From the NCBI GenBank assembly GCA_963716745.1, contig OY970320.1, forward strand, positions 1,527,865 to 1,591,864: a stretch of DNA of 64,000 nucleotides, in the 5' to 3' direction. Origin of the DNA: an uncultured Gemmatimonadaceae bacterium. GTDB lineage: Bacteria > Gemmatimonadota > Gemmatimonadetes > Gemmatimonadales > Gemmatimonadaceae. Below are positions 9,968 through 41,188 of the stretch, in pieces (position 1 is the stretch's first letter; each line of letters begins with the position of its first letter). The notes below the pieces were generated by a model that saw only the letters and a program-made list of their open reading frames with translations, was not told where the DNA came from and made no database searches. The translations under genes and the position numbers were made by a program.

Positions 9968-10061
9968 AACTACTTTGACAGGATTAACATGATCGACATC
10001 ATGATGGACAACGGGCGTCGTTCATCATGATGTCGATCATGTTAATCCTGTCAAAGCAGTT
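9968..10061. repeat. Family-1 palindromic element, copy A (about 38-bp arms, GACAGGATTAACATGAT core at the outer ends)
   Basis: cTTTGACAGGATTAACATGATCGACATCATGATG (9973-10006) pairs with CATCATGATGTCGATCATGTTAATCCTGTCAAAg (10023-10056). The stem extends with AACG/CGTT and flanking AAC/GTT. It lies between the ndh-like stop and the acs start. Confidence 0.85.
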
Positions 10062-10094
10062 GTCATGAATCTGGCGACGGCCCCGTCGCGCATC

Positions 10095-10100
10095 TAGAAT
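10095..10100 (+). promoter_or_regulatory. -10-like hexamer TAGAAT, 7 nt upstream of the ATG at 10108 of acs
   Basis: gcgcatcTAGAATgtgtcccATGtctgac. No SD sequence. This supports 10108 rather than 10099 as the start. Confidence 0.3.
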
Positions 10101-10107
10101 GTGTCCC

Positions 10108-12071
10108 ATGTCTGACGATATCGACGTCCTCCTCCACGAGCACCGGAAATTCCCGCCGCCCGCGAATTTCGCGAAAGGGGCGCACGTCAATTCCACCGCA
10201 ATGCACGAGCGCGCCGCGAAGGACTACGAAGCGTTCTGGGCGGAGATGGCGCATGAGCTCGAGTGGTCGAAGCCCTGGAGCAGAGTGCTCGAGTGGGATC
10301 CGCCGTGGGCGAAGTGGTTCACCGGCGGCACGCTGAACGCGAGCGTGAATTGTCTCGACCGCCATGTGCGCGGCGCGCGTCGCAACAAGGCGGCGCTCGT
10401 GTGGGAGGGCGAGCCGGGCGATACGCGGACGCTCACATACTGGGACCTGTACCGCGAGGTGAACAAGTTCGCGAACGTGCTCGACTCGCTGGGCGTGAAG
10501 CGCGGCGATCGCGTGGCGATCTACCTGCCGCTCATCCCCGAGGTCGTGATCGCGATGCTCGCGTGCGCGCGCATCGGCGCGCCGCACTCGGTGGTGTTCG
10601 GCGGCTTCTCGAGCGACAGTCTGCGCGACCGGATCAACGATGCGCAGTGCAAAGTGCTCGTCACCGCCGACGGCGGCTACCGGCGCGGCACGATGCTGCC
10701 GCTCAAGCGCAACGCCGATAAGGCGCTCGAGGAGACGCCGTCGATCAAGCACGTGGTAGTGGTGAAGCGCACCGGCGATGGCAGCGAGAGCCACGCCGAG
10801 ATGACGGAGGGGCGCGACCACTGGTGGCACCGCCTCATGAAGAACGCGGCGGCGTACCGCGAACCGGAGCAGATGGGCGCCGAAGATGTGCTCTACATCC
10901 TGTATACGAGCGGCACCACCGGGATCGCCCAAGGGCATCGTGCACACCACCGGCGGCTACATGACCGTTGCGCACGCCACCACGAAACTGGTGTTCGACC
11001 TGAAGGAGGACGACGTCTACTGGTGCACCGCCGATGTCGGCTGGGTCACCGGACACACATATCTCGTGTACGGGCCGCTCTCCAACGGCGCGACGTGTGT
11101 GATGTACGAAGGCGCCCCCGACTGGCCCGAGAAGGATCGCTTCTGGGAGATCTGCGAGAAGTTCGGCGTCACGATCTTCTACACCGCGCCCACCGCGATC
11201 CGCGCGTTCATGAAGTGGGGGAAGGAGCACGTGCTCAAGCACGATCTCTCCCGCCTCCGTCTGCTCGGCTCCGTGGGCGAGCCGATCAATCCGGAAGCGT
11301 GGATCTGGTACCACGAGAACGTCGGCAAGGAGCGCTGCCCCATCGTGGACACGTGGTGGCAGACGGAGACCGGCAGCATCCTGATATCGCCGCTCCCGGG
11401 CGTGACGCAGGACCAAACCCGGCAGCGCGACCATGCCGTTCCCGGGGATCTTCGCCGATCTGCTCGACGCGAACGCGAGACCCATCGCGGTGGGCGGCGG
11501 CTTGCTCGCGATCACCAAGCCGTGGCCTTCGATGCTTCGCACGATCTGGGGCGACCCCGACCGCTACGTGCAGACGTACTTCTCGAAGTGGAAGGACCGC
11601 CCCGATCTGTACTTCCCTGGCGACGGCGCGAAGCGCGACGACGAGGGCTATTTCTGGATCCTGGGCCGCGTGGATGATGTGCTCAACGTCGCAGGCCATC
11701 GCATCGGCACCATGGAGGTGGAGAGCGCGCTCGTCTCGCATCCCGCGGTGGCCGAGGCGGCGGTGGTGGGCAAAGCGCATGAGCTGAAGGGACAGGCGAT
11801 CGCGGCGTTCGTGACGCTGCGCGAAGGGCAGAGAGCCTCGCCCGCCCTGCGCGACGACCTGCGCGAGCACGTCGCGCAGAAGATCGGCGCGCTCGCCCGC
11901 CCCGACGACATCCTCTTCTCGGCCGACCTGCCGAAGACGCGCTCCGGAAAGATCATGCGCCGGCTGCTGCGCGACATCGCCGAAGGACGCGCGCTGGGCG
12001 ACGTGACGACCCTCGCCGATCCCGCGGTCGTCGCGAAGCTGAAGGATCAGTACGAGGCGACGGAGTCCTGA
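10108..12071 (+). pseudogene. acs: Acetyl-CoA synthetase (AMP-forming), two frame breaks
   Basis: Three consecutive frames carry full-length Acs: ...[10 protein letters not shown] | [13 protein letters not shown]...[18 protein letters not shown] | [12 protein letters not shown]...[15 protein letters not shown]. The joins are at about 10924 and about 11415. An alternative start is at 10099. Confidence 0.9.
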
Positions 12072-12164
12072 ACGAACTGCTTGACAGGATTAACAAGATG
12101 GACAGGATGAACAACAAGCGTTGTTCATCCTGTCCATCTTGTTAATCCTGTCAAGCAGTTCGTT
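12071..12164. repeat. Family-1 palindromic element, copy B (perfect 45-bp arms, 4-nt loop)
   Basis: AACGAACTGCTTGACAGGATTAACAAGATGGACAGGATGAACAAC aagc GTTGTTCATCCTGTCCATCTTGTTAATCCTGTCAAGCAGTTCGTT. It starts at the last base of the acs stop codon and covers the last 14 nt of the convergent VKOR gene. Confidence 0.9.
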
Positions 12165-12576
12165 GAGATCGCAGATCCGCGATGGACGTCATGAGAATCC
12201 CGAGCATGATGCACGCCGACGTCACGCACCAGATGCAGATCGCGTGGATCACGAAGAGTTCGAGGTACGTGAGCCACATCGAGAACAGCACGCTCCAACC
12301 CGAGATCGCGACCATCATGTAGGAGATCGCGCGCGACTCGGAGCCGCGCTCGGAGAGTCCCGCGATCGCGAGCACGAAGAGCACGACGTATGTCGCGAGC
12401 CCCCATGCCGCCACCGGCAAGCCGAGGAAGGTGGCCCAGCGGCTCGTGTTCACCGTCTCGCACTCGCCCACCGAGCAGGCGAGCTCGCCGATCACCCCCA
12501 CCTTGTAGAGCGTGAGGTAGAGCGCGACGAACGCGCCCGCCAGCGCGAGGACGGCGATGACCTGCCGCGTCCTCAC
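12151..12576 (-). CDS. Vitamin K epoxide reductase (VKOR) family membrane protein
   Basis: 141 aa with 4 TM segments. It has loop Cys residues (ACSVGEC) and CIWC in the last helix. It is 4-nt coupled to the upstream DsbA-like gene. Confidence 0.75.
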   Translation of the reverse strand: MRTRQVIAVLALAGAFVALYLTLYKVGVIGELACSVGECETVNTSRWATFLGLPVAAWGLATYVVLFVLAIAGLSERGSESRAISYMMVAISGWSVLFSMWLTYLELFVIHAICIWCVTSACIMLGILMTSIADLRSQRTA

Positions 12577-13337
12577 GGCTTCTTGGCGGTCTTCGGTCCT
12601 GCGGGTGCCGCGGCGGGCGGCTGGGTCGCGGCGCTGTCCACGTACGATTTGAACTCATCGTAGCCGATCGCGCCCGCCACCTTCCTCCGCCCGATCACGA
12701 ACGTGGGCGTCTGCGAGACGCCAATGCGGTCGCCTTCCTTGCGGTTGCCGTAGATGCGCGTGAGGTGCTGCTGTTCCTCGAAGCACTTCTTCCAGTCGGC
12801 CACGTTCAGACCGATCTGCTTGGCGTACTCGGCGAAGAACTTGCCCGGGTTGTTCGTCGCCTCGGTGGACCACTCGGGCTGATTGAAGAAGAGCGCGTCA
12901 TGCATCTCCCAGAATTTCTTCTGGTCGTCGGCGCACGCCGCCGCGATGGATGCGCGCAGCGAGTTCTGGTGCTGCGGCAGCGGGAAATCGTAGTAGTGGT
13001 AGCTCACGAGACCGGCCTGCACGAGGCGGCGGCGCACGTCGGGCTCGGTGACGAGCGAGAACTGCCCGCACGCCGGACACTCGTAGTCCGCGAACTCCAG
13101 CACTTGCACGGGCGCGTTGGGATTGCCGAGCAGATAGCCCTGCGCCGCAGCCGCGGTGACGTCCACTTCCTGTACGGGCGCCGATTTGGGGCGGGAAGCG
13201 ACCGAGAGCAGCCATGCGCCGCCGGCGATGATGACGATCGCGATCAGGATCCAGAAGCCGCGCGAATTCTTCGCCGGCTTCTTCTTCTTCACCACTCCCG
13301 GTCGCTGTCCCTTTCCCTCTTTTCGTCCGGCTGCCAT
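12573..13337 (-). CDS. DsbA-family thiol:disulfide oxidoreductase (membrane-anchored)
   Basis: N-terminal TM segment (FWILIAIVIIAGGAWLL) and thioredoxin-fold active site YECPACGQF. Confidence 0.8.
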   Translation of the reverse strand: MAAGRKEGKGQRPGVVKKKKPAKNSRGFWILIAIVIIAGGAWLLSVASRPKSAPVQEVDVTAAAAQGYLLGNPNAPVQVLEFADYECPACGQFSLVTEPDVRRRLVQAGLVSYHYYDFPLPQHQNSLRASIAAACADDQKKFWEMHDALFFNQPEWSTEATNNPGKFFAEYAKQIGLNVADWKKCFEEQQHLTRIYGNRKEGDRIGVSQTPTFVIGRRKVAGAIGYDEFKSYVDSAATQPPAAAPAGPKTAKKP

Positions 13338-13603
13338 GTGGTCGGCTCCCAGTGTGGTTCGTTGGCTTGGCTTTCGCTCACGATACGCCGGCTCTCCGCG
13401 ATCTCGGGCGTGTCGTACGTCGCGCGCACTTCGTAATGGAAGAGCTCGCTGCGGATGTCGCCGATGAGTTTCATGAGTTCGCCGGCATGCGCCAGCAGCT
13501 CGCCGCGCTCATCGAGAGCGACGATCCGTGCCGCCAACGACCTGAGCAGGGCCTGGAGCGCCCGCGCGCGGCCGTCGCCGTAGGTCTCTTCCGGCTCCGT
13601 CAT
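13289..13603 (-). CDS. Hypothetical protein
   Basis: ORF 13289..13639 trimmed to the ATG at 13603 (MTEPEETYGDG). Charged and helical-looking, with no recognisable family. Confidence 0.4.
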   Translation of the reverse strand: MTEPEETYGDGRARALQALLRSLAARIVALDERGELLAHAGELMKLIGDIRSELFHYEVRATYDTPEIAESRRIVSESQANEPHWEPTTWQPDEKRERDSDREW

Positions 13604-13709
13604 TCGAGGAAAGCTAGGGCCTGCGACAGACCCCGGCAATTCGCCGGACGCACTACACCGGGAGGCGATCTTCGATTAGATTCATGGGTCCTCATACCGT
13701 GCAGGGAGA

Positions 13710-13991
13710 ATGGCCAAGGATAGGAATCGCCAGCGCGAGAAGAGCGTGAGTACGCCCTTCGAGCAGGCGCGCGACGAGATGTTCCAACAGATCATCCAGT
13801 GCGGCGTGCTTCAGTCGTCGCCCGAGCACCAGATAGAGTGGCTCGACGATACGATGTCGTACCTCGCGGACCGATACCACGAACTCCAGCCCCGCGACGT
13901 CACCGAACTCAAGACCCTCGGCGTTCGTTTCTGCCAGCCGCCCAAGGCGCGCGTGGCGGATGAGCCGGCGGACGAGAATGTCGCGGCGTAA
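13710..13991 (+). CDS. Hypothetical protein (93 aa)
   Basis: The ATG is preceded by AGGGAGA. The composition looks protein-like (FEQARDEMFQQIIQCGVL). It is followed by a strong intrinsic terminator. Confidence 0.5.
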   Translation: MAKDRNRQREKSVSTPFEQARDEMFQQIIQCGVLQSSPEHQIEWLDDTMSYLADRYHELQPRDVTELKTLGVRFCQPPKARVADEPADENVAA

Positions 13992-14032
13992 ACAGCAACG
14001 GCGTGTGTGGCGTCTGGCGTATGGTACGACTG

Positions 14033-14064
14033 AAAAGCCCCTGCGTTCGCGCGGGGGCTTTGTG
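14033..14064 (+). terminator. Intrinsic terminator (9-bp GC stem, UUCG tetraloop, T-run)
   Basis: aaaaGCCCCTGCG-ttcg-CGCGGGGCtttgtg. The stem 14037-14045 pairs with 14050-14058, with one G-U pair. Confidence 0.7.
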
Positions 14065-14083
14065 CATCCCGTGGTCGGCGCGC

Positions 14084-14089
14084 TATACT
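14084..14089 (+). promoter_or_regulatory. -10-like hexamer TATACT, 7 nt upstream of the GTG at 14097
   Basis: ggcgcgcTATACTcagcagcGTGcac. Confidence 0.3.
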
Positions 14090-14096
14090 CAGCAGC

Positions 14097-14942
14097 GTGC
14101 ACTCCAACAGGAACCGGTATCGAATGACGGGACATGCCTCGGCTCGCGCGCACCGCTCGGCGGCGGCGCTAATTGCGGCGTTCGCCACGTTGGGGGCCGT
14201 CGGCGCCTGTGGCGGGCATGTCGCCGCCACCGATGAGACCCCGTCGCCCCATGAGGCGCACGCCGCGTGGAGCTACAGCGGAGCGAAGGGCCCCAAGCAC
14301 TGGGCCTCGCTCGACACGGCGTACAAGCTCTGTTCCGACAGCAATAACCAATCGCCGATCAATATCGACAGCGCCAAGCTGGTGGACGCCGAGAACATCG
14401 AGTTCCACTATGAGCCGAGCAAGATCAACATCGTGAACAACGGGCACACGATCGAGGTCGAGTACGAGCCGGGGAGCTACGTCACGCTCGTGGGCGTGCG
14501 CTACGATCTGGTGCAGTTCCACTTCCACATGCCAGGCGAGCACAAGACGAAGGGCAAGCTGCGCGACGGCGAGCTGCATCTCGTGCACAAGAGCGCCGAT
14601 GGCCATATCCTCGTCATCGGGGTGATCCTCTACCACACGCAGACCGACAATGCCGCGTTCGCGTCGGTGTGGGAGAACATCCCGAAGAAGCCGGGCGAGA
14701 TGCAGCATCTCAATGCGCAGACCAACGCGAGTCTGTTCCTGCCGGCCAGCCGCGCGACGTACCGCTACGACGGATCGCTCACGACCCCGCCGTGCACCGA
14801 GGGCGTGCTCTGGAACGTCATGGTCGACTCGGTGGCCATGTCGCAGGGCCAGATGCTCGACTTCATGCACATCGTTGGCGACAACTACCGGCCAGTGCAG
14901 CCGCTGGGCGGGCGGCCGCTGCTCAAGGACGCGACGCCCTAG
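14097..14942 (+). CDS. Alpha-class carbonic anhydrase, secreted
   Basis: WSYSGAKGPKHW, QSPINI, NNGHTIEV, QFHFHMPGEH, ELHLVHK, YRYDGSLTTPPCTEGV. Signal peptide/lipobox-like AAFATLGAVGAC. An alternative start is the ATG at 14124. Confidence 0.9.
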   Translation: MHSNRNRYRMTGHASARAHRSAAALIAAFATLGAVGACGGHVAATDETPSPHEAHAAWSYSGAKGPKHWASLDTAYKLCSDSNNQSPINIDSAKLVDAENIEFHYEPSKINIVNNGHTIEVEYEPGSYVTLVGVRYDLVQFHFHMPGEHKTKGKLRDGELHLVHKSADGHILVIGVILYHTQTDNAAFASVWENIPKKPGEMQHLNAQTNASLFLPASRATYRYDGSLTTPPCTEGVLWNVMVDSVAMSQGQMLDFMHIVGDNYRPVQPLGGRPLLKDATP

Positions 14943-14955
14943 TGGGCCTCTGCCA

Positions 14956-15861
14956 TCAGTGCGCGCCGCAGGACGAGACCGGCAGGGTGGAGTAGGCCAT
15001 TCCTTCCGGCGCGATCTCCACGCGCACAGCGAATCGCTGCGCGCCCGGCGGCTGATCCTTCACGTTCGAGCCCACGATCATCGCGAGCCGGCGCACCGCG
15101 GAATCGGGAATGGTCGACCGGGTGATCGCGAGCGGATACATGCCGCCGGTGGAGTCGAAGGCGAGCTCGAAGATCGCGTTGCCGGCCGGCAGCGGCGGCG
15201 TCGCGCCGGTCACCATCATGCTGACCACGCCGGTGTCGAGCACCTCGGCGATCTTGGGCGGCGCCGCGGGCGCTTTCGCACAATTCGGATCGATGACCTT
15301 ATTGCCCACGGATCCGGGGAACTGGACCGTCCAGAACAACTGGCGAAGCGGCAGCAGATCGGACTGGTACTGCGCGACGATCGCGACGTCCACGACGCCG
15401 ATCCCGTCGCTGGCGAGCCACTCCGCGAACAGCGTGACGCTCGCGGTGCTCGTGGGGATGGCAGAGATGTCGTGTCGGGCCATCGACTCGGCGTTCAGCG
15501 ACGAGACCGCGCTGAGGCTCGCGGGAATGGTATAGAGCGTGATCGTGGCGGGGCGTCCCCCGAGCATGACATGGCACGTTTTCAGGCTCTGCATGTTCGG
15601 CTGCCGAGGCATCCTGTGGCCAACCCACAGATGAACCGTCACCTTGCCCGTCGAGTACGTCTGATAGTAGCTGGTCGACGCGGAGACCGCGAAGCTCGAC
15701 GGGACTTGCATCGTGACTCCGCTGACAGTCACCTGCATCGAACCCGCGGCGGCCGGCGGTGGCGCGCCACACAAGTCGTCGGCTGAACCGTTCGCGGCCG
15801 GTGGGGCGATCGGCGTGCGAGCCAAGATGCCCGAGATGACGAGCGCGATTGCGATGCTCAT
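14956..15861 (-). CDS. Hypothetical exported protein
   Basis: ORF 14956..15900 trimmed to the ATG at 15861 (MSIAIALVISGILA, N-terminal hydrophobic segment). No family recognised. Confidence 0.45.
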   Translation of the reverse strand: MSIAIALVISGILARTPIAPPAANGSADDLCGAPPPAAAGSMQVTVSGVTMQVPSSFAVSASTSYYQTYSTGKVTVHLWVGHRMPRQPNMQSLKTCHVMLGGRPATITLYTIPASLSAVSSLNAESMARHDISAIPTSTASVTLFAEWLASDGIGVVDVAIVAQYQSDLLPLRQLFWTVQFPGSVGNKVIDPNCAKAPAAPPKIAEVLDTGVVSMMVTGATPPLPAGNAIFELAFDSTGGMYPLAITRSTIPDSAVRRLAMIVGSNVKDQPPGAQRFAVRVEIAPEGMAYSTLPVSSCGAH

Positions 15862-15982
15862 TGCTAGGTCCTCCGGCGTGACTGGAGGCGCAGGGATCAA
15901 CGCCCCCTGTCGACACTACGCGCCACTCGGCGCCATCGCTAGGCTCGATTCGACGTGACGATTGGAATGCTCCAATCCGGCG

Positions 15983-16474
15983 CTACCGCCCGCGCACCGT
16001 CGCGCGCCGGAGTCCGAGTCCGATCTGTACGCCACCGCCGTATCCGGCCTCCACGAACGGAGTCCACGATCCCCACTTCGGGCCCTCGAGTCCGACGAGC
16101 GCCACGAGCGCGCCGCGCCACGATGGCGCCGCTTCATAGCGGAGACTCAGGCCGCCGGTGCCGTAGAGCGCCCACTGCTCTTTGCGATCCGGATCGAGCA
16201 CGTAGCGCCCCAGCAGGTCGAAGCGCGCGCTGAATTCACCCACGCCGCTCGCGAGAGTGCTGCCCGCGCCGCCGAGCGCAACGAGCCGGAAGCTCGGGTC
16301 GAGGAAGAACGCCACCGCCGCCGCGCCCTGCACCGTGGTCGTGCTCGCGAGGAACACATCGGCGCGCCCCTCCCACTGCGGGCCTGGCACACTCTGCGCC
16401 GCGCTCGACGTCGCCGCGAACGCGACCGCCGCGATGACCGAGCGGTAGCGCCACGCACAACTCTTGTTCCTCAC
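15983..16474 (-). CDS. Hypothetical small outer-membrane beta-barrel-like protein
   Basis: Signal peptide (VIAAVAFAATSSAAQ), Gly/aromatic-rich alternating segments, and a C-terminal aromatic-containing strand. Confidence 0.4.
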   Translation of the reverse strand: MRNKSCAWRYRSVIAAVAFAATSSAAQSVPGPQWEGRADVFLASTTTVQGAAAVAFFLDPSFRLVALGGAGSTLASGVGEFSARFDLLGRYVLDPDRKEQWALYGTGGLSLRYEAAPSWRGALVALVGLEGPKWGSWTPFVEAGYGGGVQIGLGLRRATVRGR

Positions 16475-16995
16475 GCTTTTCGCCGTGTGCGTGAGAGGTA
16501 CATCGTATAATCAATGATCGCCCACGCCGAGCACCCCGCCACGACCCAGATGTACCACGCGAGCCACGCGGGCTCGAGCAGGATCACGAACAGCGCGGCG
16601 ATCTGGAGCGTGGTGAGCACTTTGCCGGAGAGCCGCGCCTTGAAATCGCTGACCTCGAGACCCGGCAGATAGTGCGCGACGAGGAGCCCCACCGCCGTCG
16701 CGAGGTCGCGGGAGATGATGATGAAATAGTCGCGGGTGGTGAGCGAGCCGTCGAACAGGAATGCCGAGAGCGCGAGGAGCACGAATGTCTTGTCGGCGAT
16801 CGGGTCGAGCAGCGCGCCCACGCGCGTGCTGGCGCCCTGACGCGCGAGCCAGCCGTCCAACAGATCGGTAAGCGCGGCTGCACTGATGAGCGCGAGACGC
16901 GCGGTAGTGCCGTGCACCGCCACGAACGCCGCGGCCAGCGGGATGCGCGCGAAGGACAGCAGGTTCGGAACGGTGAACACGCGGTTCTGCTGCAC
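16471..16995 (-). CDS. CDP-alcohol phosphatidyltransferase (PgsA-like)
   Basis: VPNLLSFARIPLA...DLLDGWLARQGASTRVGALLDPIADK is the D-G-x2-A-R-x8-G-x3-D-x3-D signature. Confidence 0.8.
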   Translation of the reverse strand: MQQNRVFTVPNLLSFARIPLAAAFVAVHGTTARLALISAAALTDLLDGWLARQGASTRVGALLDPIADKTFVLLALSAFLFDGSLTTRDYFIIISRDLATAVGLLVAHYLPGLEVSDFKARLSGKVLTTLQIAALFVILLEPAWLAWYIWVVAGCSAWAIIDYTMYLSRTRRKA

Positions 16996-17053
16996 GCCGC
17001 AAGCTAGATGGACCGCTCCGCGCTTGCCAGCGCGGGGCGTTGGACGCTATTTC

Positions 17054-17524
17054 ATGGATATGTCCGCCACCATCGAGATCCTCAAGACGATCAACATCTT
17101 CAAGGACCTCACGCCCGAGGAACTCGGCCGCGTCTCGGAACTCTGCGAGGAGCGGAAATACGAGTCGGGGGTGTACGTGTTCCATGAAGGCGAGCCGGGC
17201 AACCGGCTGTTCATCATCGTCGAGGGCGCGGTGCGGATCTCGCGCCAGATCCCGGGCGCCGGTGAAGAGGCGCTCGCCGTGCTCAAGAAGGGCGCGCTCT
17301 TCGGAGAGATGGCGGTATTCGACAAGAGCGAGCGCTCCACCGACGCGATCGCCGACGGCGGTGTGACCGTGCTCACGATCTCGCGCCCCGAATTCGAGAT
17401 GCTCCTCGAATTCAACAAGGAGCTGGGCACGAAGATGCTCTGGGCCGTGATCCGGATGCTCTCCATGCGACTCCGCAGCACGAACGACTCGCTCAAATCG
17501 TTCCTGGCGATGAGTATGTTCTAA
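17054..17524 (+). CDS. Cyclic-nucleotide-binding domain protein (stand-alone cNMP/Crp-type sensor domain)
   Basis: ORF 16886..17524 trimmed to the ATG at 17054. FKDLTPEEL...GEPGNRLFIIVEGAVRI...GALFGEMAVFD...RSTDAIA. Confidence 0.75.
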   Translation: MDMSATIEILKTINIFKDLTPEELGRVSELCEERKYESGVYVFHEGEPGNRLFIIVEGAVRISRQIPGAGEEALAVLKKGALFGEMAVFDKSERSTDAIADGGVTVLTISRPEFEMLLEFNKELGTKMLWAVIRMLSMRLRSTNDSLKSFLAMSMF

Positions 17525-17575
17525 CTGCGGACGACGGGCTGTTACGCTTCTACCGCTCCAGGCATCTAGTACTAA

Positions 17576-17941
17576 ATGCCCGCGACCATCCCGCCTCCCG
17601 CCTTGTCCGCGTTCACGCACGTCGCCGCCGATCTCATCGGGGTGACGGGCGACGCGCTGCGCGATGTCTCGGCGCTCGGCGGGCTGCTTATCGCGGCGGC
17701 GGGCGCGGCGGGCTACGGCACGATCGGGGCGCCGGTGGTGAAGCAGTTGCCGGGCGGCGACGTCGCCGGGGTGCTGCTGCTCGACGGCTGCCACATCGCG
17801 CTGCATTCGTTCCCCGAGCGCGAATTGCTCCTCCTCGACATCCTCGCCCCCGCCTCGCGCGACGCGCGGAAGGCGCTGGACGTATTCGCGAAGCGTCTGG
17901 TTCCGCGGCAGATCAGGAGCGAGGCCCGGCCGAGGGGTTAG
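17576..17941 (+). CDS. S-adenosylmethionine decarboxylase-related (SpeH-fold) protein, atypical cleavage site
   Basis: AGVLLLDGCHIALHSFPERELLLLDILA aligns with SpeH [25 protein letters not shown]. The H-x-[FW]-PE motif is present, but the self-processing Glu-Ser is replaced by Gly-Cys. Confidence 0.5.
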   Translation: MPATIPPPALSAFTHVAADLIGVTGDALRDVSALGGLLIAAAGAAGYGTIGAPVVKQLPGGDVAGVLLLDGCHIALHSFPERELLLLDILAPASRDARKALDVFAKRLVPRQIRSEARPRG

Positions 17942-20578
17942 TCGCTCCCTTGGCGTTCCCTCGCACGACGGCCTGTACGAGTCGCGATTCGTCGAAGTAC
18001 TTCCTCGCGAGTTCTCGCATTGCGCCCGCCGTCACCGCCGCGCACGCGCGCATCGTGCTCGTCGAGCTCGCGAGTCCGCGTCCCATCATCCATGCGTCGA
18101 CGATCTCCCCGAGCACGCTGCCGCCGCTCTGCTGGCGGATCGCGTGCGTGCCGATCGCGTATTCCTGCGCCAGCTCCAGTTCGCGCGCGGTGACCTCGCC
18201 CTCGCGCAGCCGCGCGAACTCGCGCAGGAGTCCGCGGCGCGCCGTCTCCTCCTGCGCTGGCGACGTCGCGATGTAACTCACGAACATGCCCGCGCGACGG
18301 CGCTCGCTCGAGTGCGCGTGCACGGTGTAGGCGAGCGACTTCTTGTCGCGCAGCTCCTCGAAGAACCGGCCGCCGAGTCCGCTCGCGACACCGGCGATCA
18401 TCTCGGCCGCCCAGCGATCGTCGTCCCACCGGTCGGGCGCGGGGAACGCGAGCGCGAGTGCCGTCTGCGCCTTGTCGCGGTCCTCGCTCACCGACACCGG
18501 CCGCGCGCCGGCCACGCCGGTGCGTCCAACGCACCCGGCCGGCCCGCGCCGAGGCCTGCGAAGAGCACCGCGGCGCGCGCGGCCGCGTCGTCGGCGTCCA
18601 CGTCGCCCACGATCGCGATCGCCGTCGCACCGCTGATCACGCGCACGCGGTGCCAGGCACGCAGCCGCCCTGCATCCAGCGCGGCGAGTGTGTGCTCATA
18701 GCCGCTCGAAGGAATGCCGTATGGGTGCCCCGCGAACGCCGCCGAGACGAGCAGGCGCATCGGCCAGCGGTACATGTCATCGCGCATCAGCGCGAGGTCG
18801 GCGATCGCCACGGCGCGCTCGGTCTCCAGCGCGCCCGCCGGGAAATTCGCGTTCAGCACGACATCGGCGAGCAGCGCCATCGCCGCCGCGCCATGCTGCG
18901 ATGGCACGGAGATCGACCAGCCCAGTTGCTCGGCGCCGGCATGCGCGCTCACGCTCCCGCCGAGCGATTCCGCCTCTTCCGCGATCTGCTCGGCGCGGCG
19001 CTTGGCCGTGCCCTTCACCGCCGTGCGCGTCATGAGCGACGTGAGCCCCGCGCTCTCTTCGTTCTCATCGCTGGCGCCGCCCGCCGCGAATACGCCCACG
19101 TGCATGAGCGGCGATCCCGCGCGCCGCTTCACGAGCACTGGCACGCCCGCCGCCGTGCGATAGATGCGCACACCCGCCTCCTCGCGGTCGAGCGCGACCG
19201 GCGAGAGCACGAGCGCGGGCGACTCCGGCGCCGGCGACGGCGCGACGAAGGGCTGGGCGCGCCCTCCTTCCAGGATCGCGCGCAGCGCACCGGTGTCCGC
19301 GGCGACGGGCGGCGAATTCCGCGGCCGGTAGAACAGCACGCCCGCGCGCTCCGCCGTGAGGTGCCGGCGCATCGCCGCGGTCACTTGCTCGCCGTCGGCG
19401 CCAAGCAGTCCCGCGAGGTATGCACCGCCAAGCGTCCAGGCGCCGAGCGCTTCCCACCCGGCGAGATAGGTCGCCTGGCCCTCCATGGTCTCCAGCCGGC
19501 GCAGCCACTGCGATTCGATCACGCGGCGCGCGCGCTCAAGCTCGGCCGGGTGCACGCCCACATCGCGCATTGCCGCGAGCTGCGCCCACGCTTCGGCGGT
19601 CGCATCCGCGGCCGATGAGGGTGGCCCCTCCGCGTGGATGGTGAACACGCCGAGCTGGGTCGGCGTGTAGTTCGACGCTCCGATGGAGGCGACGAGCCGG
19701 CGCTCGCGCACCGCGCGATAGAGTCGCGACGCGCGGCCCGCGCCGAGCATCGTCGCGGCGAGATCGAGCAGCACCGTGTCGGCGTCGAGCGTGCCCGGCG
19801 TTCGCCAGCCGATCGCGATCTGCGTCTGCGCGATGTCGCCTGCCAGTTCGTGGAAACGGAGTCCGTCGTGCTCCGGCTCCGCCGGTCCGGCCGCATGCTC
19901 CACCGGAGCATCTTTGAGCGTGCCGTACAGGCGCTCCACTTCGCGCACCGCGATCTTCAGGTCAATGTCGCCCACGATCGAAAGGATCGTATTGCCGGGG
20001 CGGTAGTGATTGCGGTAGAAGCGCGTGACATCCGCGCGCGTGAACCGCCGCAGCATGTCCTCGCGGCCGATGCGCCAGCGTCGCATCCGATGCCGGTCGT
20101 GCAGCAACGCGTACAGCGACTCGACCGCCACGGCGGAGGGATTGTCCTCCTTCCGTTTGGCTTCCTGGATGATGACCGCGAGCTCGCGCGCGAGCTCATC
20201 CGCATCGATGAGCGAATTCGCGAACGCATCGAATTGGATCTCGAGTCCGCGCACGAACGCCGCGGACGGGAGTACGGTGTAATAGCTGGTCTGGTCGTAG
20301 ATCGTGCCGGCGTTCAGGTAGCCGCCGGCGGCCTTCGTCGCACGCGGGATCTCGCCCACGCCGCGCGTGGGCGTCCCCTTGAAGTACATGTGCTCGAGCA
20401 CGTGGGAGATGCCCTGCACGTCGTCCGTCTCATCGAAGTAGCCGGCTCTCACGTGCGTGACGATCGCGACGACCGGCGCACTGGCGTCGCGGCGGAGGAG
20501 AACGGTGAGCCCGTTCTCCAACCGCACGCGCCTGACGGAATCGACTGGAAGGAGCGGCGAAGCGCCGCCGCCGCTCAC
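17913..20578 (-). CDS. Tandem M16 (pitrilysin-family) zinc peptidase, two fused M16 units (one frame break)
   Basis: The GTG at 20578 overlaps the upstream stop. HVLEHMYFKGT is the HxxEH zinc motif. The second unit starts near AGVRIYRTAAGVPVLV. The last 200 aa are in another frame (ORF 17913..18515), with the join near 18490-18515. Confidence 0.8.
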
Positions 20579-24364: not shown

Positions 24365-24408
24365 CAGATTGACTTGAGAAAAGTGAGAGGTGGTGTTGCA
24401 GTTCAAAG

Positions 24409-24490
24409 CATGTGAATCATGTTAATCCTGTCCAATGCTCTTCCTAGAATCCGCGATAACTGCTTTGACAGGATTAACATGATTTACATG
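24409..24490. repeat. Family-1 palindromic element, copy C (24-bp arms, 34-nt spacer, GACAGG ends facing inward)
   Basis: CATGTGAATCATGTTAATCCTGTC (24409-24432) pairs with GACAGGATTAACATGATTTACATG (24467-24490), with 1 mismatch. The spacer contains CTAGAAT. Confidence 0.85.
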
Positions 24491-24506
24491 ATTGGGCACG
24501 GAACGC

Positions 24507-24519: not shown

Positions 24520-24681
24520 ATGACCGACACGCCCGCACCGGAAACGCCCGCCGCCGAGAATCCCGTCGTCGATACGTCGCCCGCCGCGCCCGAGCGCACC
24601 GCCGTCACCTACGGGATCCTGTTCATGGTGCTCGCCGCGCTCGTCGTGTACTTCGTGCTGCACGCGGTGCGCCGCCACTAG
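24520..24681 (+). CDS. Small membrane protein (53 aa), hypothetical
   Basis: Below the ORF-track size cutoff. MTDTPAPETPAAENPVVDTSPAAPERTAVTYGILFMVLAALVVYFVLHAVRRH has one clear TM helix. Its TAG stop overlaps the stop of the convergent gene within CTAG. Confidence 0.35.
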   Translation: MTDTPAPETPAAENPVVDTSPAAPERTAVTYGILFMVLAALVVYFVLHAVRRH

Positions 24682-28447: not shown

Positions 28448-30199
<1,752 letters not shown>

Positions 30200-30320
30200 T
30201 CCGAAGGAGGACAGGTGGGGGTCCGCGGCCGCAACGAAGCGCGCGCGCCGCTCGCATCGGCGGGCGCGGCGCATAAGTTAACCGCGGTGGCATTCGGGCC
30301 ACGCGCAAGTTACCCAATCC

Positions 30321-31442: not shown

Positions 31443-31453
31443 AACTGCGCGTT

Positions 31454-31571
31454 GGAACCGCTGACGGCGGGACTGGTACCGCTAGGGGCGGGATTGGCGT
31501 TGGATGAAGCCGTTGTGGTATCCAACGCCAATCCCGCCGTCAGCGGTGCCAGTTCCGCCGTCAGCGGTTCC
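31454..31571. repeat. Family-2 long imperfect palindrome, copy 1 (51-nt arms)
   Basis: GGAACCGCTGACGGCGGGACTGGTACCGCTAGGGGCGGGATTGGCGTTGGA pairs with TCCAACGCCAATCCCGCCGTCAGCGGTGCCAGTTCCGCCGTCAGCGGTTCC, with about 5 mismatches. Each arm is itself a roughly 22-nt tandem duplication. It lies between the patatin stop and the acnA start. Confidence 0.8.
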
Positions 31572-31611
31572 AGTCCCTAATTAGCTTTCAGTCATACCCA
31601 CCGGACATGAC

Positions 31612-34281
<2,670 letters not shown>

Positions 34282-34296
34282 AGTCTTAACTGCAAG

Positions 34297-34398
34297 CCGG
34301 GAACCGATTGCCGGGAACCGATGAGGAACAAAAAATGATTCCCTTACGACAGGGAATAGGTGGTCATGCCTCACCGGTTCCCGGCAACCGGTTCCCGG
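34297..34398. repeat. Composite hairpin between convergent acnA and the CDP-alcohol transferase gene
   Basis: CCGGGAACCGATTGCCGGGAACCGATGAGG pairs with CCTCACCGGTTCCCGGCAACCGGTTCCCGG, with 2 mismatches. Each arm is a tandem CCGGGAACCG unit. The AT-rich 42-nt spacer has an inner 7-bp hairpin ATTCCCT/AGGGAAT. Confidence 0.75.
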
Positions 34399-34402
34399 TA
34401 GT

Positions 34403-36992: not shown

Positions 36993-37020
36993 GCCGCAGT
37001 GAATAATTGGAGGTCACATC

Positions 37021-38993: not shown

Positions 38994-39886
38994 GCGGCCG
39001 CGTCGCCGTCATCGTCAACCCCGCCTCCGGTAGGGGGCGGGGGGCGAGGACGGCGGAGCGGATCCACCGCGCATTCGCGGATGTGGGCGTCACCGACATC
39101 CGGTTCACCACGGCGCCTGGGCAGGAGCGAGAGCTCGCGGCCCAGGCGCTTCGCGATGGGGCCACGACCATCGTGGCCTGCGGCGGCGACGGCACGTGGA
39201 GCAATGCGGCGAACGCCATCGTGGCGGCGAAGAGCTCGTGCCGCCTCGCGATCGTGGCGGCCGGCACCGGCAACGATTTCGCGAAATCGCTCAAGATACC
39301 GGCCACCGACATCGAGCAGATGGCGCGACTCGCGGTGGATGGTCCCGACACGCCGATCGACGTGGGCCGCATCGAGGACCGCTACTTCCTGAACATCACG
39401 GGCTTCGGATTCGACATCGCCGTGCTCGAGGACATCGAGAGCATCTGGTGGCTGCGCGGCTACCTGCTCTACAAGTACTCCGCACTCAAGCAGCTGCTCA
39501 GCTACAAGGGGCTGATGGTGGACATCGCGAGTCCCGCCAAGCCGCGCGGCATGAAGCAGCATCTCATGGTGATCGTGGCGAACGCGCGGTATTTCGGCGG
39601 AACCTTCGTGATCGCGCCGAACGCCGATCTCGCCGACGGGAAGCTCGATCTCATCGCCATCCACGACGCGTCGCCGATCCAGCGCGCCAACTTGTTCGGC
39701 GCCGTGGGCAAGGGCACGCACATGACGCACCCCAGCGTGGATGCGGAACAGTCGTCATCGTTCACGATGCGTTTCGCCGAACCGCCGGCGTACGAGACCG
39801 ACGGCGAGTACAACCGCGCGAAGAGCGCCGTGCTCGAGATCACGACCGTGCCCCGCGCGCTGCGGCTCGTGGTGCCGGCGAAATGA
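38990..39886 (+). CDS. Lipid kinase, DAGK catalytic domain family (YegS / sphingosine-ceramide kinase-like)
   Basis: VAVIVNPASGRGRG, VACGGDGTWSNAANA (GGDGT), GTGNDFAKSL, C-terminal DGE. Confidence 0.8.
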   Translation: MSGRVAVIVNPASGRGRGARTAERIHRAFADVGVTDIRFTTAPGQERELAAQALRDGATTIVACGGDGTWSNAANAIVAAKSSCRLAIVAAGTGNDFAKSLKIPATDIEQMARLAVDGPDTPIDVGRIEDRYFLNITGFGFDIAVLEDIESIWWLRGYLLYKYSALKQLLSYKGLMVDIASPAKPRGMKQHLMVIVANARYFGGTFVIAPNADLADGKLDLIAIHDASPIQRANLFGAVGKGTHMTHPSVDAEQSSSFTMRFAEPPAYETDGEYNRAKSAVLEITTVPRALRLVVPAK

Positions 39887-41100
39887 AGGCGATCTCCTTC
39901 GCGGCGCCGATCCCGACGTACCTCGCGACGCTCGCCGCCGGCAAGATCTCCGACCGGTTCTATGTGGGCCCGTACGCCTGCACCACCTATGGCGACCGCG
40001 AAGCGCCCGCGCTGCCAAGCGACCGCTGGGTGCGGCTCCGTACGCGCATGGGCGGCATCTGCGGCAGCGACATCAACGTCGTCACGCTCGGCGCGAGTCC
40101 ATCCAATTCGCCCTTCTCGAGCTTCCCCTTCGTGCTCGGGCACGAGTTGGTGGGCGAGGTGATCGAGTGCGGTGCGGCGGTGAGCAGCGTGCGCGCGGGC
40201 GATCGTGTGGCGGCGAATCCGCTGCTCTGCTGCGAAGCGCGCGGGATCGCGCCGGTATGCGCCGCGTGCGCGGACGGGCAGCATGGGCGCTGCGTGAACT
40301 TCACGACCGGGCCGCTGCCGGCGGGCGTGCTCATCGGGACCACACGCGGGCTCGGCGGCGGCTGGGGCGAGCAGTTCGTGGCGCACGAGTCGCAGCTGCT
40401 CAAGCTCTCGCTGGACATGAAGGACGAGGACGCCGTGCTCATCGAGCCGTTCGCGTGCTCGGTGCGGGCCGTGCGCTCCAATCTGCCGGCGCCGGGCGCG
40501 CGAGTGCTGGTGATCGGCGCCGGCTCGATCGGACTGCTCACCACCGCGGCCGTTCGCGCGCTCGCGCCGGCGGCGCGCGTGACCGTGCTCGCGCGTTACG
40601 ATTTCCAGGCGGAGCACGCGACACGATTCGGCGCCGCGAACGTGATCAAGGCGCGCGGGAATTATCTCAAGGCCCTCGCCGACGTCGCGGGCACGAAGCT
40701 GCTGCAGCCGATCCTCGGCAAACCGATCGGCATCGGCGGCTTCGACATCACATTCGTGTGCGTGAGCGGCGCGCGCGGCATGGACGACGCAATGCGCTTC
40801 ACGACCGCGGGCGGCACGATCGTACTGCTCGGCAACTCGAGCACCATGCGGGGACTCGATTGGACGCCGCTGTGGGTGAAGGAACTCTCCGTGCGCGGAT
40901 CCGTGTTCCACGGAGGGCACGCGCACGCCGCGTCCGATCGCGACGATTTCCATGAGGCCGCGACGTTGATTTCTTCGGGCAAGGCCAATGTGCGCCCGTT
41001 GCTGACGCACACGTTCCCGCTCGCCGAGTACCGCGCCGCTCTCGCCGCCGCCATCGACAAGCGAGGAGAAGGCAGCGTGAAGGTGGCGTTCAAGTACTGA
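39883..41100 (+). CDS. Zn-dependent medium-chain dehydrogenase/reductase (MDR)
   Basis: GICGSDINVV, GHELVGEVIE, structural-Zn Cys cluster (CCEARGIAPVCAACADGQHGRC), VLVIGAGSIGLL. At 405 aa it is longer than Tdh. Confidence 0.8.
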   Translation: MKAISFAAPIPTYLATLAAGKISDRFYVGPYACTTYGDREAPALPSDRWVRLRTRMGGICGSDINVVTLGASPSNSPFSSFPFVLGHELVGEVIECGAAVSSVRAGDRVAANPLLCCEARGIAPVCAACADGQHGRCVNFTTGPLPAGVLIGTTRGLGGGWGEQFVAHESQLLKLSLDMKDEDAVLIEPFACSVRAVRSNLPAPGARVLVIGAGSIGLLTTAAVRALAPAARVTVLARYDFQAEHATRFGAANVIKARGNYLKALADVAGTKLLQPILGKPIGIGGFDITFVCVSGARGMDDAMRFTTAGGTIVLLGNSSTMRGLDWTPLWVKELSVRGSVFHGGHAHAASDRDDFHEAATLISSGKANVRPLLTHTFPLAEYRAALAAAIDKRGEGSVKVAFKY

Positions 41101-41110
41101 TTCGCAGTTC

Positions 41111-41188
41111 CATCATGTGAATCATGTTAATCCTGTCAACGTAGTTTTTGAAAACTACTTTGACAGGATTAACATGATTCGCATGATT
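41111..41188. repeat. Family-1 palindromic element, copy D (26-bp arms plus inner stem)
   Basis: CATGTGAATCATGTTAATCCTGTCAA (41114-41139) pairs with TTGACAGGATTAACATGATTCGCATG (41160-41185), with 1 mismatch. The inner stem is GTAGTTT-ttga-AAACTAC. Confidence 0.85.

Follow-up and report, generated by a model that had tools for sequence, protein, structure and literature searches.

What are the four pairs of inverted repeats that lie between the genes of a 64-kb stretch of DNA from a soil Gemmatimonadaceae (hereafter the window), and how did they come to be there? The preliminary description had reported eight copies of a 24-nt unit, all intergenic and arranged as four inverted pairs. This arrangement was confirmed, as the core GACAGGATTAACA has exactly eight matches in the window, at 9977/10040 (A), 12083/12140 (B), 24420/24467 (C), and 41125/41162 (D), where 0.19 would be expected by chance. 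Element B has two further inner copies of the core, with one mismatch each, and ten matches were reached in none of 100 shuffles. A profile built from the eight units retrieved only those eight with nhmmer (E 1e-10 to 1e-12), the next-best match in the window having an E of 0.34. The unit itself had to be redefined: instead of a single 24-nt repeat, it consists of three nonamers in tandem, GACAGGATT-AACAKGATn-nACAnnATG, with a flank specific to the lineage, AACTRCTTT, in front of them. Every element is extragenic. The two architectures described earlier were also recovered: the GACAGG ends are outermost, at the base of the hairpin, in A and B (head-to-head, or A-type) and point inwards in C and D (tail-to-tail, or D-type), where they are 34 nt and 24 nt apart, respectively. 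The elements and their units are as follows.

Element A, 9963..10066, no strand: palindrome with 51-nt arms (9963-10013 and 10016-10066), 90% complementary; 1 nt after the Pyr_redox_2 stop (9966) and ~35 nt before the start of the acetyl-CoA synthetase (ACS) gene.
Unit A-left, 9966..10005, plus strand: AACTACTTT followed by GACAGGATT-AACATGATC-GACATCATG; nhmmer E 3.9e-12; sigma-70-like match at 9975-10002 (TTGACA-16-CATCAT, 10/12).
Unit A-right, 10024..10063, minus strand: nhmmer E 1.5e-12; promoter-like match at 10054-10027 (10/12).
Element B, 12068..12167, no strand: A-type palindrome with 48-nt arms (12068-12115 and 12120-12167), 98% complementary; nonamers GACAGGATT-AACAAGATG-GACAGGATG; between the convergent ACS (stop 12071) and VKOR genes.
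Unit B-left, 12072..12110, plus strand: nhmmer E 1.9e-10.
Unit B-right, 12125..12163, minus strand: nhmmer E 1.9e-10.
Element C, 24398..24498, no strand: two D-type units with a 34-nt spacer; on one side an M28 peptidase gene in divergent orientation (minus strand, ATG ~24366), on the other a small ORF (ATG 24520).
Unit C-left, 24405..24440, minus strand: first hexamer TTGGACA; nhmmer E 4.5e-10.
Unit C-right, 24456..24495, plus strand: nhmmer E 3.6e-12; promoter-like match at 24465-24492 (TTGACA-16-CATGAT, 10/12), 28 nt before the ATG at 24520.
Element D, 41104..41196, no strand: D-type, 24-nt spacer, 37-nt arms, 95% complementary, the pairing reaching into GCAGTTCC/GGGACTGC; after the Zn-ADH stop (41100) and upstream of an AhpC/TSA (peroxiredoxin) gene (41283-41801).
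Unit D-left, 41110..41148, minus strand: nhmmer E 2.8e-12; promoter-like match at 41139-41112 (10/12).
Unit D-right, 41151..41190, plus strand: nhmmer E 2.8e-12; promoter-like match at 41160-41187 (TTGACA-16-CATGAT, 10/12).

All four pairs are predicted to fold into hairpins of 37-48 bp, with free energies of -68.7 (A), -87.2 (B), -43.0 (C), and -67.0 kcal/mol (D) and z-scores of -12.6, -17.9, -7.9, and -14.9, respectively. Element B even supplies the last codons and the stop codon (12151-12153) of the VKOR gene. Such very stable hairpins, 1-10 nt past stop codons, might act once transcribed, as 3'-end stabilisers or terminators or as long double-stranded sites for RNase III. The idea of intrinsic terminators, raised in the preliminary description, is unsupported because T-tracts are absent: none of the four stems is followed by a T/U tract, and a terminator scan called none at the four sites.

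The units could also matter as DNA. The perfect TTGACA noted earlier is present in seven of the eight units, the eighth having TTGGACA, and five units hold the only matches in the 64 kb that reach 10/12 of the sigma-70 consensus (TTGACA-16-CATGAT/CATCAT). Each unit might thus be a portable promoter for the adjoining gene, the pairing being incidental or allowing bidirectional firing, and at A, C, and D one unit does face a gene start 28-107 nt downstream. We regard this reading as unlikely. Its case consists of consensus matches; any palindrome would also drive antisense transcription of the upstream gene, and element B, below the threshold score, lies between convergent genes.

Comparisons with close relatives show that the elements turn over. 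We used five syntenic Gemmatimonadaceae contigs, 77-96% identical, and found that relatives gain, lose, or replace elements at sites A and B. At the site orthologous to A, L211 and L212 carry an element and L213 and L214 have none. Element B is found in L103 and is missing in L211, where the flanking genes overlap by 47 nt, while other variants take its place in L212 and L214: the copies of L212 resemble each other and not those of the window, and that of L214 is a palindrome of CGCGGAT type. Presence and absence differ even among relatives that are 94-96% identical, which argues against an RNA-level function, and the emptiness of sites A and B in relatives with the same genes counts against promoters.

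Another candidate reading is that of ordinary MITEs, which would have arisen by deletion from a classical DDE insertion sequence (e.g., an IS630/Tc1-like one that targets TA) and be moved in trans by its transposase. In keeping with this, the internal sequence varies between terminal inverted repeats, insertions are polymorphic and can be nested (as in Thioalkalivibrio denitrificans), and the ends are often flanked by TA in AT-richer genomes. However, the flanking TA belongs to the palindrome itself, and the comparable filled and empty alleles of sites A and B revealed neither a target-site duplication nor another defined transposition footprint. The window lacks a transposase, and none turned up between the arms at ~200 loci, where PDDEXK_3 is the sole family enclosed. 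To our knowledge, arms of two to five tandem nonamers are atypical of the ends of known insertion sequences. We therefore consider MITEs very improbable. A redox regulon (NADH dehydrogenase-like oxidoreductase, VKOR/DsbA, peroxiredoxin) with the elements as operators for its transcription factor would account for the loose redox theme among the neighbouring genes and for palindromic sites with repeated half-sites. This reading, already disfavoured, seems to us the least probable of all: arms of 37-51 nt far exceed the length of an operator, element B lies at convergent 3' ends, the sites are missing in close relatives with the same genes, and more than 15 phyla have the same sequence beside unrelated genes.

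The two arms of an element evolve together. The inner arms of A differ from those of B, and within each element they are identical at 30 of 30 nt; between the window and L103, the flank of element B has undergone a compensatory T:A to G:C change. Among 54 elements without an enclosed gene (solos), arm identity is 0.49 within elements vs 0.36 between them, a value as high being obtained in none of 2,000 permutations. These results uphold the arm co-variation proposed in the preliminary description. The extragenic location extends beyond the window as well: long open frames contain 5 of the 54 elements vs 82% of random segments.

How far does this family extend? When 185,579 species genomes were scanned with GACAGGATTAACANGAT, at least 119 stretches matched, among which a lone 16-mer match may be due to chance (~280 expected by our own arithmetic). 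The matches listed come from Acidobacteriota, Verrucomicrobiota, Kiritimatiellia, Lentisphaerae, Planctomycetota, Chloroflexota, Bacteroidota, Nitrospirota, Gemmatimonadota, Armatimonadota, Pseudomonadota, Desulfobacterota, and a Methanosarcinaceae MAG. At most family loci an inverted partner lies 30-170 nt away, and palindromes of ACARGAT nonamers occur in more than 15 phyla, a very wide taxonomic range. Over 156 arms, the consensus reads tTT[a/t]GACAGGATT-AACARGATT-TACARGATT, and the nonamer differs by lineage (ACAGAAT, CGCGGAT, CACAGAGGA, and others). The family consensus favours TAGACA over TTGACA and has CAGGAT as its '-10', and variants such as CACAGAGGA and CGCGGAT are not promoter-like, two further arguments against portable promoters. 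Conservation of the nonamer across phyla is likewise not needed for a hairpin acting in RNA. No Rfam family matched, and our literature search found no description of these nonamer repeats. The palindrome family is thus very widespread and apparently uncatalogued.

Some copies have long loops, and these revealed an association with one gene family. Two of them (L020 and L001) enclose a PDDEXK_3 gene (E 7.5e-34 and 5e-41), and across ~200 loci GxxExxY/PDDEXK_3 was the sole gene family found between arms. GxxExxY proteins (Pfam PDDEXK_3, TIGR04256) are PD-(D/E)XK nucleases of ~130 aa found in many bacterial phyla, with 6,808 relatives at E<=1e-10. Their catalytic residues are conserved, the invariant positions being E18, D57, E67, K69, Q81, N84, and Y85; the structure model was poor (pLDDT 60) and had no informative structural neighbours. 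Next to 80 metagenomic GxxExxY genes, many of them orthologous (one group lies upstream of gyrA, another upstream of dxr), nonamer arrays reach 48 times the density found elsewhere on the same contigs (234 array seeds in 36.5 kb vs 17 in 130.8 kb, p = 3e-131). At 45 of the 80 loci, strict arrays stand on both sides.

The type of nonamer varies with the GxxExxY lineage, both being confounded with host phylogeny. Divergent proteins go with variant nonamers such as ACAGAAT, and the arrays are of type CGCGGAT in Gemmatirosa kalamazoonensis and three Gemmatimonadaceae MAGs, CACAGAGGA in Bacteroides finegoldii, CGCGAAG in Sphingomonas, ACACGGATT in Treponema, and ACAGAGA in Bernardetia. In two genomes, solos match the arrays around the nuclease gene. 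In B. finegoldii, three solos and one bracketed nuclease gene of the same nonamer type lie within 24.8 kb; on the Verrucomicrobiae chromosome OY970345.1, a solo (L041) lies 340 kb from a bracketed nuclease gene between gyrB and gyrA (L219) and shares the type of its arrays.

Gene-bracketing arrays also bear on the RNA-level reading, in whose RNase III version the sites would separate cistrons or free the mRNA of the enclosed gene, as in 23S rRNA intervening sequences. In its favour, the enclosed genes are co-oriented within host operons (fabD-X-fabG, gyrB-X-gyrA, radA-X), and aquifer metatranscriptome contigs cover a Brocadiaceae element (L082), many diverging at its borders, with a depth that is confounded by copy number and possible DNA carry-over. 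However, the linker bases of gene-bracketing arms differ and are non-complementary, sense-strand G.U pairs are not in excess (93 vs 128 A.C), and in Prevotella and a Fusobacteria plasmid the genes are flanked by direct rather than inverted arrays. What is conserved here is the nonamer motif rather than pairing. Taken together, hairpins working as RNA, RNase III sites included, are an unlikely explanation. The promoter reading finds some further support here, in several GxxExxY loci with an ATG 5-6 nt past the third nonamer, as would be expected of a leaderless transcript or of an AGGA ribosome-binding site.

Because similar lineage-specific nonamer arrays bracket GxxExxY genes, we read the copies of the window as non-autonomous partners of such genes. 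They would be gene-less members of a dispersed palindrome family belonging to a REP/RAYT-like (REPIN-like) GxxExxY system, an explanation to which we give about an even chance. The nonamer arrays would be recognition sites for a GxxExxY nuclease encoded elsewhere in the genome, which may bind them, possibly as extruded hairpin or cruciform DNA, and cut them; repair or copying would then disperse, replace, and homogenise the elements, thereby mobilising the solos, while intrastrand templating would keep the arms alike. In the lineage of the window, units could, as a side effect, act as outward- or inward-firing sigma-70-type promoters. The genome of the window would then carry a cognate gene. 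We found no GxxExxY gene in the window or in 20-kb stretches of four relatives, and the Gemmatimonadaceae GxxExxY genes that we found have CGCGGAT-type arrays, not the ACAKGAT type of the window. The same association could have other causes: hairpins that already existed could have been parasitised by the nuclease gene in a homing-type manner, or gene and arrays could both depend on a third factor.

The array/nuclease pair looks like a new REP/RAYT-style system, selfish or domesticated, with a PD-(D/E)XK nuclease in the place of the RAYT. Like REP/BIME and REPINs with their RAYTs in Proteobacteria, it has short extragenic palindromes in inverted pairs, head-to-head and tail-to-tail, with genome-specific variants, varying occupancy among close relatives, and many gene-less copies beside a few that bracket one small nuclease-type gene. 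The preliminary description had pointed to this organisation and to the absence of a RAYT or IS200-like gene from the window, both borne out here (a Pfam scan of 50 ORFs found housekeeping genes throughout); it had overlooked the division of the unit into nonamers, the spread of the family across phyla, and the association with GxxExxY genes. Unlike in REP/RAYT systems, the gene encodes a putative nuclease of the PDDEXK_3/GxxExxY family and not an HUH/Y1 transposase, and the arms are tandem nonamer arrays instead of a single imperfect palindrome with a GTAG head. REPs are, as far as known, species-specific, whereas the ACARGAT nonamer is common to more than 15 phyla.

Other systems share some of these traits. 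MITEs such as Correia, RUP, and Nezha are also small, non-coding, intergenic, and insertion-polymorphic, with terminal inverted repeats, and can nest and bear promoter-like sequences; our elements differ in lacking target-site duplications and a cognate DDE transposase, in ends that repeat with a 9-nt period, and in loops ranging from 2 nt to a whole gene. The ORF-containing 23S rRNA intervening sequences of Leptospira and Coxiella (S23p/four-helix-bundle ORFs) similarly place a small gene of unknown function in a long, stem-forming inverted repeat inserted into host transcription units, and TIGRFAM curators reportedly counted GxxExxY proteins, along with four-helix-bundle proteins, among such multi-copy families. 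In contrast, our elements lie outside rRNA, are mostly empty, and conserve the sequence of the arms and not just their pairing. Homing endonuclease genes, too, lie between would-be target halves, with empty targets (here, the solos) at many loci; from a homing-type point of view, the gene is always in the loop because it sits inside the nuclease's own target. The targets would here be palindromes dispersed in many copies, not one conserved host gene, the intron or intein context is missing, and cleavage is putative.

The window contains eight exact copies of the core GACAGGATTAACA, arranged in four inverted pairs, and two further copies with one mismatch lie inside element B. The number of core matches expected by chance is 0.19, and none of 100 shuffles reached 10. 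A profile made from the eight units recovers those eight alone in the window (E-values of 1e-10 to 1e-12; the next match has E 0.34).

Palindromic elements of the window, with the positions of their paired cores and their gene context
Element A, 9963-10066: cores at 9977 and 10040; 1 nt past the stop codon of a Pyr_redox_2 gene and upstream of an acetyl-CoA synthetase gene
Element B, 12068-12167: cores at 12083 and 12140; between the convergent acetyl-CoA synthetase and VKOR genes
Element C, 24398-24498: cores at 24420 and 24467; between a divergent M28 peptidase gene and a small ORF
Element D, 41104-41196: cores at 41125 and 41162; after a Zn-dependent dehydrogenase gene and before an AhpC/TSA peroxiredoxin gene

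The preliminary description had seen a 24-nt unit repeated in four inverted pairs. The pairs stand, but the 24-mer does not: all eight units consist of three tandem nonamers, GACAGGATT-AACAKGATn-nACAnnATG, preceded by the lineage flank AACTRCTTT. As had been noticed, all four elements and all eight units are extragenic in the 64 kb, and there are two architectures. A and B are head-to-head, with the GACAGG ends at the foot of the hairpin, whereas C and D are tail-to-tail, with flipped units whose GACAGG ends point inward across spacers of 34 nt (C) and 24 nt (D). A repeat finder gives arms of 51 nt for A (90% complementary), 48 nt for B (98%) and 37 nt for D (95%). The RNA folds of A, B, C and D have dG values of -68.7, -87.2, -43.0 and -67.0 kcal/mol, and z-scores of -12.6, -17.9, -7.9 and -14.9 relative to dinucleotide shuffles. 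The window has a G+C content of 67.8%, and the 50 ORFs scanned with Pfam are ordinary housekeeping genes. No RAYT/Y1 (REP-associated tyrosine transposase), DDE transposase or PDDEXK_3 domain was found among them; the absence of Y1_Tnp agrees with the earlier remark that no RAYT or IS200-like transposase is present.

The proposal that the hairpins act as intrinsic terminators or stabilisers of transcripts finds no support at the four sites: no terminator was called at any of them, and their A+T-rich stems are not followed by a run of T. RNase III processing of the long stems is possible. The units might also be sigma-70-type promoters, since five of them read TTGACA-16-CATGAT/CATCAT (10/12 consensus positions), which are the sole such matches in 64 kb, and one unit each at A, C and D aims at the downstream gene. 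However, B lies between convergent genes, relatives lacking an element keep the genes, and nothing promoter-like is seen in the nonamers of other lineages. Promoter activity is a plausible side effect in this lineage rather than the reason why the family exists. Because the 64 kb have no near-consensus sigma-70 promoters other than those in the elements, expression of the neighbouring genes is probably affected. Lying at gene ends, the elements of this organism also rewrite the C-terminus and stop codon of VKOR, whose stop codon (12151-12153) and last codons are element B sequence. Metatranscriptome contigs on a Brocadiaceae locus (L082) were confounded by copy number. There, metatranscriptome contigs cover 200 nt beside a nonamer hairpin (5772-5972) to a depth of 750-2600, whereas the neighbouring gene has 11-27; a further repeat or an abundant small RNA might explain this stretch.

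The taxonomic range of the core, a question raised by the preliminary description, proved very wide. We scanned one genome per species (185,579 species) with the 16-mer GACAGGATTAACANGAT and found at least 119 stretches. The matches listed include Acidobacteriota, Verrucomicrobiota, Kiritimatiellia, Lentisphaerae, Planctomycetota, Chloroflexota, Bacteroidota, Nitrospirota, Armatimonadota, Gemmatimonadota, several classes of Pseudomonadota, Desulfobacterota and a Methanosarcinaceae MAG. About 280 matches to a random 16-mer are expected in 2 x 596 Gb (our own arithmetic), and single matches therefore mean little. At most loci, an inverted partner lies 30-170 nt away. Over 156 arms the consensus reads tTT[a/t]GACAGGATT-AACARGATT-TACARGATT, with two to five nonamers per arm. 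Perfect complementarity between arms is often absent. Arm identity at variable positions is 0.49 within elements versus 0.36 between elements, a result reached by none of 2000 permutations. The gene-less palindromes, hereafter solos, are as a rule extragenic: 5 of 54 lie in open frames of at least 150 codons, versus 82% of random segments from the same loci. Copies are nested within copies in Thioalkalivibrio denitrificans. In a Planctomycetota chromosome (L069, 2100-2580), a nonamer hairpin is part of a 192-nt unit present in three tandem copies, together with a G+C-rich hairpin, and in a Lewinellaceae MAG (L039, 5380-5740) right arms alone recur with a 96-nt period.

Searches for an existing description of these repeats were negative. 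Rfam gave no match to the window at the gathering threshold and, at E<=1, gave only sub-threshold matches to miRNA-like hairpins for canonical copies and Bacteroides variants. Full-text open-access articles and preprints searched with the repeat strings (ACAGGAT and CACAGAGGA types) contained no description, the sole match being a primer overlap in a B. fragilis paper. The FopS sRNAs of Bacteroides are a different thing, namely 65-70-nt sRNAs with a 5' seed and a terminator. Among plasmids, element D had no BLAST match.

The sequence of the window was found in soil and rhizosphere DNA metagenomes only, and the soil contigs are too fragmented for empty-site alleles. Occupancy was compared among Gemmatimonadaceae relatives: a locus from a MAG (L103) that is 95.7% identical to the window over 11224-19045, and four syntenic contigs (L211-L214) picked via their Pyr_redox_2 orthologues (94, 86, 80 and 77% protein identity). 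Site A is filled in the window, in L211, where the copy has the same outer ends and a different interior, and in L212, where a G+C-rich palindrome is nested in the interior. L213, with 13 nt at this place, and L214, with a 42-nt spacer, have no copy at site A, and L103 does not cover it. Site B is filled in the window, in L103, in L212 by a copy resembling L212's own site-A copy, and in L214 by a palindrome of CGCGGAT nonamers. In L211 site B holds no element, and the acetyl-CoA synthetase and VKOR genes share 47 nt; L213 has no copy of the nonamer family there, with a CTCGGCG heptamer hairpin in its place. From these differences in occupancy it follows that the elements are gained, lost and replaced among close relatives, and homogenised within a genome. 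When filled alleles of sites A and B were set against empty ones, no clear target-site duplication was visible, at most a TGA on either side of B. The foot of B differs between the window and L103 by a compensatory change (gcTtGAC..GTCaAgc versus gcGtGAC..GTCaCgc), with about 0.02 such events expected by chance at 4% divergence (our own estimate). The view that the hairpin arms co-vary is borne out by this change and by the greater likeness of arms within an element. The hairpin of L213, a contig without element B, consists of tandem CTCGGCG heptamers in the spacer between the acetyl-CoA synthetase and VKOR genes (13150-13215), which suggests that more than one kind of tandem-repeat palindrome is drawn to this site.

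Two copies with long loops (L020 and L001) each enclose a gene of the PDDEXK_3/TIGR04256 family. These GxxExxY proteins, of about 130 aa, belong to the PD-(D/E)XK nuclease superfamily. A metagenome scan with this protein gave 80 loci with two layouts: either ..AGACAGGATTAACAGGATTTACAGGAT.. upstream and its reverse complement downstream, or a complete hairpin on either side of the gene. Within 200 nt of the gene, array seeds reach 48 times their density in the rest of the same contigs (234 in 36.5 kb versus 17 in 130.8 kb; p = 3e-131), and strict arrays occur on both sides in 45 of the 80 loci. In every locus with a gene between the arms, that gene is PDDEXK_3: no other bracketed family recurs, and no transposase lies between the arms in about 200 loci. 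Neither the solos nor the window yielded remnants of GxxExxY genes, and a profile of the protein had no match in the six-frame translation of the window. The lack of remnants in solos implies that these are not simply decayed gene-carrying copies.

The recurring core of the nonamers, or nonamer type, is ACAKGAT in the window (AACTGCTTTGACAGGATTAACA-type arms). ACAGGAT-type arrays lie beside the genes of L001, L020, L219 and about 58 of the 80 metagenomic loci, and the ACATGAT variant is found in the arms of three loci (L147, L142 and L156). A group of loci upstream of dxr has ACAGAAT. Gemmatirosa kalamazoonensis and three Gemmatimonadaceae MAGs have CGCGGAT, with three or four nonamers per arm; the sole CGCGGAT array in a 40-kb stretch of Gemmatirosa comes 20 nt after the GxxExxY gene. 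The Gemmatimonadaceae GxxExxY genes that we found are associated with CGCGGAT arrays, unlike the nonamer type of the window. Other types are CACAGAGGA in Bacteroides finegoldii, CGCGAAG in Sphingomonas, ACACGGATT in Treponema, ACAGAGA in Bernardetia and, as direct arrays, ACAAATnGA in Prevotella, where a small gene beside the GxxExxY gene had no informative Pfam match. Judging from these sequences, the nonamer differs with the lineage of the GxxExxY protein. Solos and bracketed genes can share a type within a genome: a 24.8-kb record of B. finegoldii has three solos and one bracketed gene, and in a Verrucomicrobiae chromosome (OY970345.1) a solo lies at a distance of 340 kb from a bracketed gene that is situated between gyrB and gyrA. 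Single small GxxExxY insertions amid co-oriented housekeeping genes (fabD-X-fabG, radA-X, ade-X and gyrB-X-gyrA in L202, L205, L207 and L219) suggest that the genes are transcribed with host operons.

The GxxExxY protein keeps the PD-(D/E)XK catalytic set (E18, D57, E67 and K69), as well as Q81, N84 and Y85, and has 6,808 relatives at E<=1e-10. An AF2 model of the nuclease with 29 close homologues was poor (pLDDT 59.9), and Foldseek with this poor model found no PDB match at E<0.1; sequence and profile searches of the PDB also found nothing. A survey of the superfamily in 2012 gave the function of PDDEXK_3 as 'unknown' and noted multiple horizontal transfers (PMC3424549). Other literature gave no more than 'function unknown' and an incidental mention.

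How do these elements relate to known ones? REP/RAYT systems combine a small number of copies that bracket a small nuclease gene with many gene-less ones; their variants are genome-specific and occupancy turns over. The elements described here resemble REP/BIME-REPIN in being short extragenic palindromes with inverted pairs both head-to-head (A and B) and tail-to-tail (C and D), and to this extent the earlier comparison was right. It does not extend to the GTAG foot and the cognate RAYT. The family-wide consensus flank is plain T/A-rich, with no conserved GTAG foot, and the Gemmatimonadaceae flank is AACTAC/AACTGC (GTAG or GCAG on the other strand). The bracketed gene is a RAYT (Y1/HUH, IS200/IS605-like TnpA) there and PDDEXK_3 here. 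MITEs share the terminal inverted repeats, but sites A and B show no clear target-site duplication and no autonomous IS with the same ends was found; a classical MITE is unlikely on the former ground and on the absence of transposases between arms in the roughly 200 loci. Also unlikely is a redox-regulon operator, with size, turnover and cross-phylum spread all against it. GxxExxY and the four-helix-bundle '23S rRNA IVS' proteins are both said by TIGRFAM curators to be multi-copy families; in contrast to 23S rRNA intervening sequences, the elements lie between protein genes in a window without rRNA. The window elements are best classed with REP-like extragenic palindromes that have an associated nuclease. 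New relative to REP/RAYT are the different superfamily of the bracketed nuclease and the arms made of tandem nonamers common to many phyla.

What reads the repeat can be approached from the arms around GxxExxY genes, which differ at linker bases and keep the nonamer core where pairing is not kept. There is no excess of G.U over A.C pairs on the sense strand (93 versus 128), and the arrays of two lineages are direct repeats; lag-9 autocorrelation over the 70-95-nt flanks was too diluted. Together, the conserved core, the lack of a G.U excess and the direct arrays point to recognition by a protein rather than to a required RNA hairpin. The GxxExxY protein, always travelling with nonamers, is the obvious candidate reader. 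Given the REP/RAYT-like architecture, we propose that a GxxExxY nuclease gene lies elsewhere in the genome and that the window elements are its non-autonomous partners; the nuclease would bind, cut and mobilise them. The chief weakness of this proposal is the mismatch between the window's nonamer type and the CGCGGAT arrays of the Gemmatimonadaceae GxxExxY genes found. A homing variant, in which the nuclease gene would invade empty palindromes, is equally compatible. We are highly confident in the descriptive parts taken jointly (family, turnover and association) and give the full mechanistic reading, elements plus nuclease, an even chance. More tentatively, nonamer palindromes and GxxExxY proteins may form an unrecognised class of elements in most bacterial phyla, in which a minimal PD-(D/E)XK nuclease would read lineage-specific 9-mer arrays and either home into them or disperse gene-less solos.

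GxxExxY/PDDEXK_3 is a very large orphan family, to which the nonamer arrays, present beside each gene examined and also as gene-less solos, offer a fixed and testable DNA partner. If true, the proposed partnership would provide the first function for PDDEXK_3/TIGR04256, and the REP/RAYT lifestyle would have been invented a second time by an independent mechanism. If the nuclease reads lineage-specific tandem 9-mers, nature may have diversified the family into a set of sequence-specific nucleases. For annotation, the elements account for many palindromes rich in AT and for many spurious small ORFs (DRINRI.., NPVNPV..) in Verrucomicrobiota, Acidobacteriota, Planctomycetota, Bacteroidota and Gemmatimonadota.

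The window has several other features. It differs from close relatives by single-base indels, which probably reflect errors of long-read assembly and not pseudogenes. An extra G at ~11410 splits the acetyl-CoA synthetase gene into 10099-11787 and 11433-12071, a 1-nt gap lies inside VKOR at ~12277, soil contigs lack 1 nt at 41295, and a DUF4147/MOFRL glycerate-kinase-like gene is split at 41975-43427. Two related G+C-rich palindromes with units like CCGCTGACGGCGGGACTGGTACCGC and arms of 53-58 nt lie at 31453-31572 and 45428-45568. Three more long inverted repeats are found at 34297-34398, 54241-54358 and 61521-61691, one of which has 81-nt arms and lies upstream of a Ser/Thr kinase gene. Tandem paralogous genes for Ser/Thr protein kinase-TPR proteins (55885-59061 and 59114-61666, minus strand) share 73-79% identity in blocks of 300 nt. 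A 21-27-nt tandem repeat (TAGCCGTAGCCGTAGTA..) at 53241-53398, in a minus-strand DUF4384 gene, suggests from its reverse complement a predicted Gly/Tyr-rich protein repeat. Finally, the AhpC/TSA (Bcp-type) peroxiredoxin gene (41283-41801, plus strand) has an in-frame TGA (41469-41471) exactly at the peroxidatic cysteine of the T-x-x-C motif (..YKARTKG[TGA]TIQMEAYRDQY..), with a hairpin GGCGUAC-CGUGAUCA-GUACGCC about 17 nt downstream, and would seem to encode a selenocysteine peroxiredoxin, the hairpin being its bacterial SECIS element, rather than to be a pseudogene.
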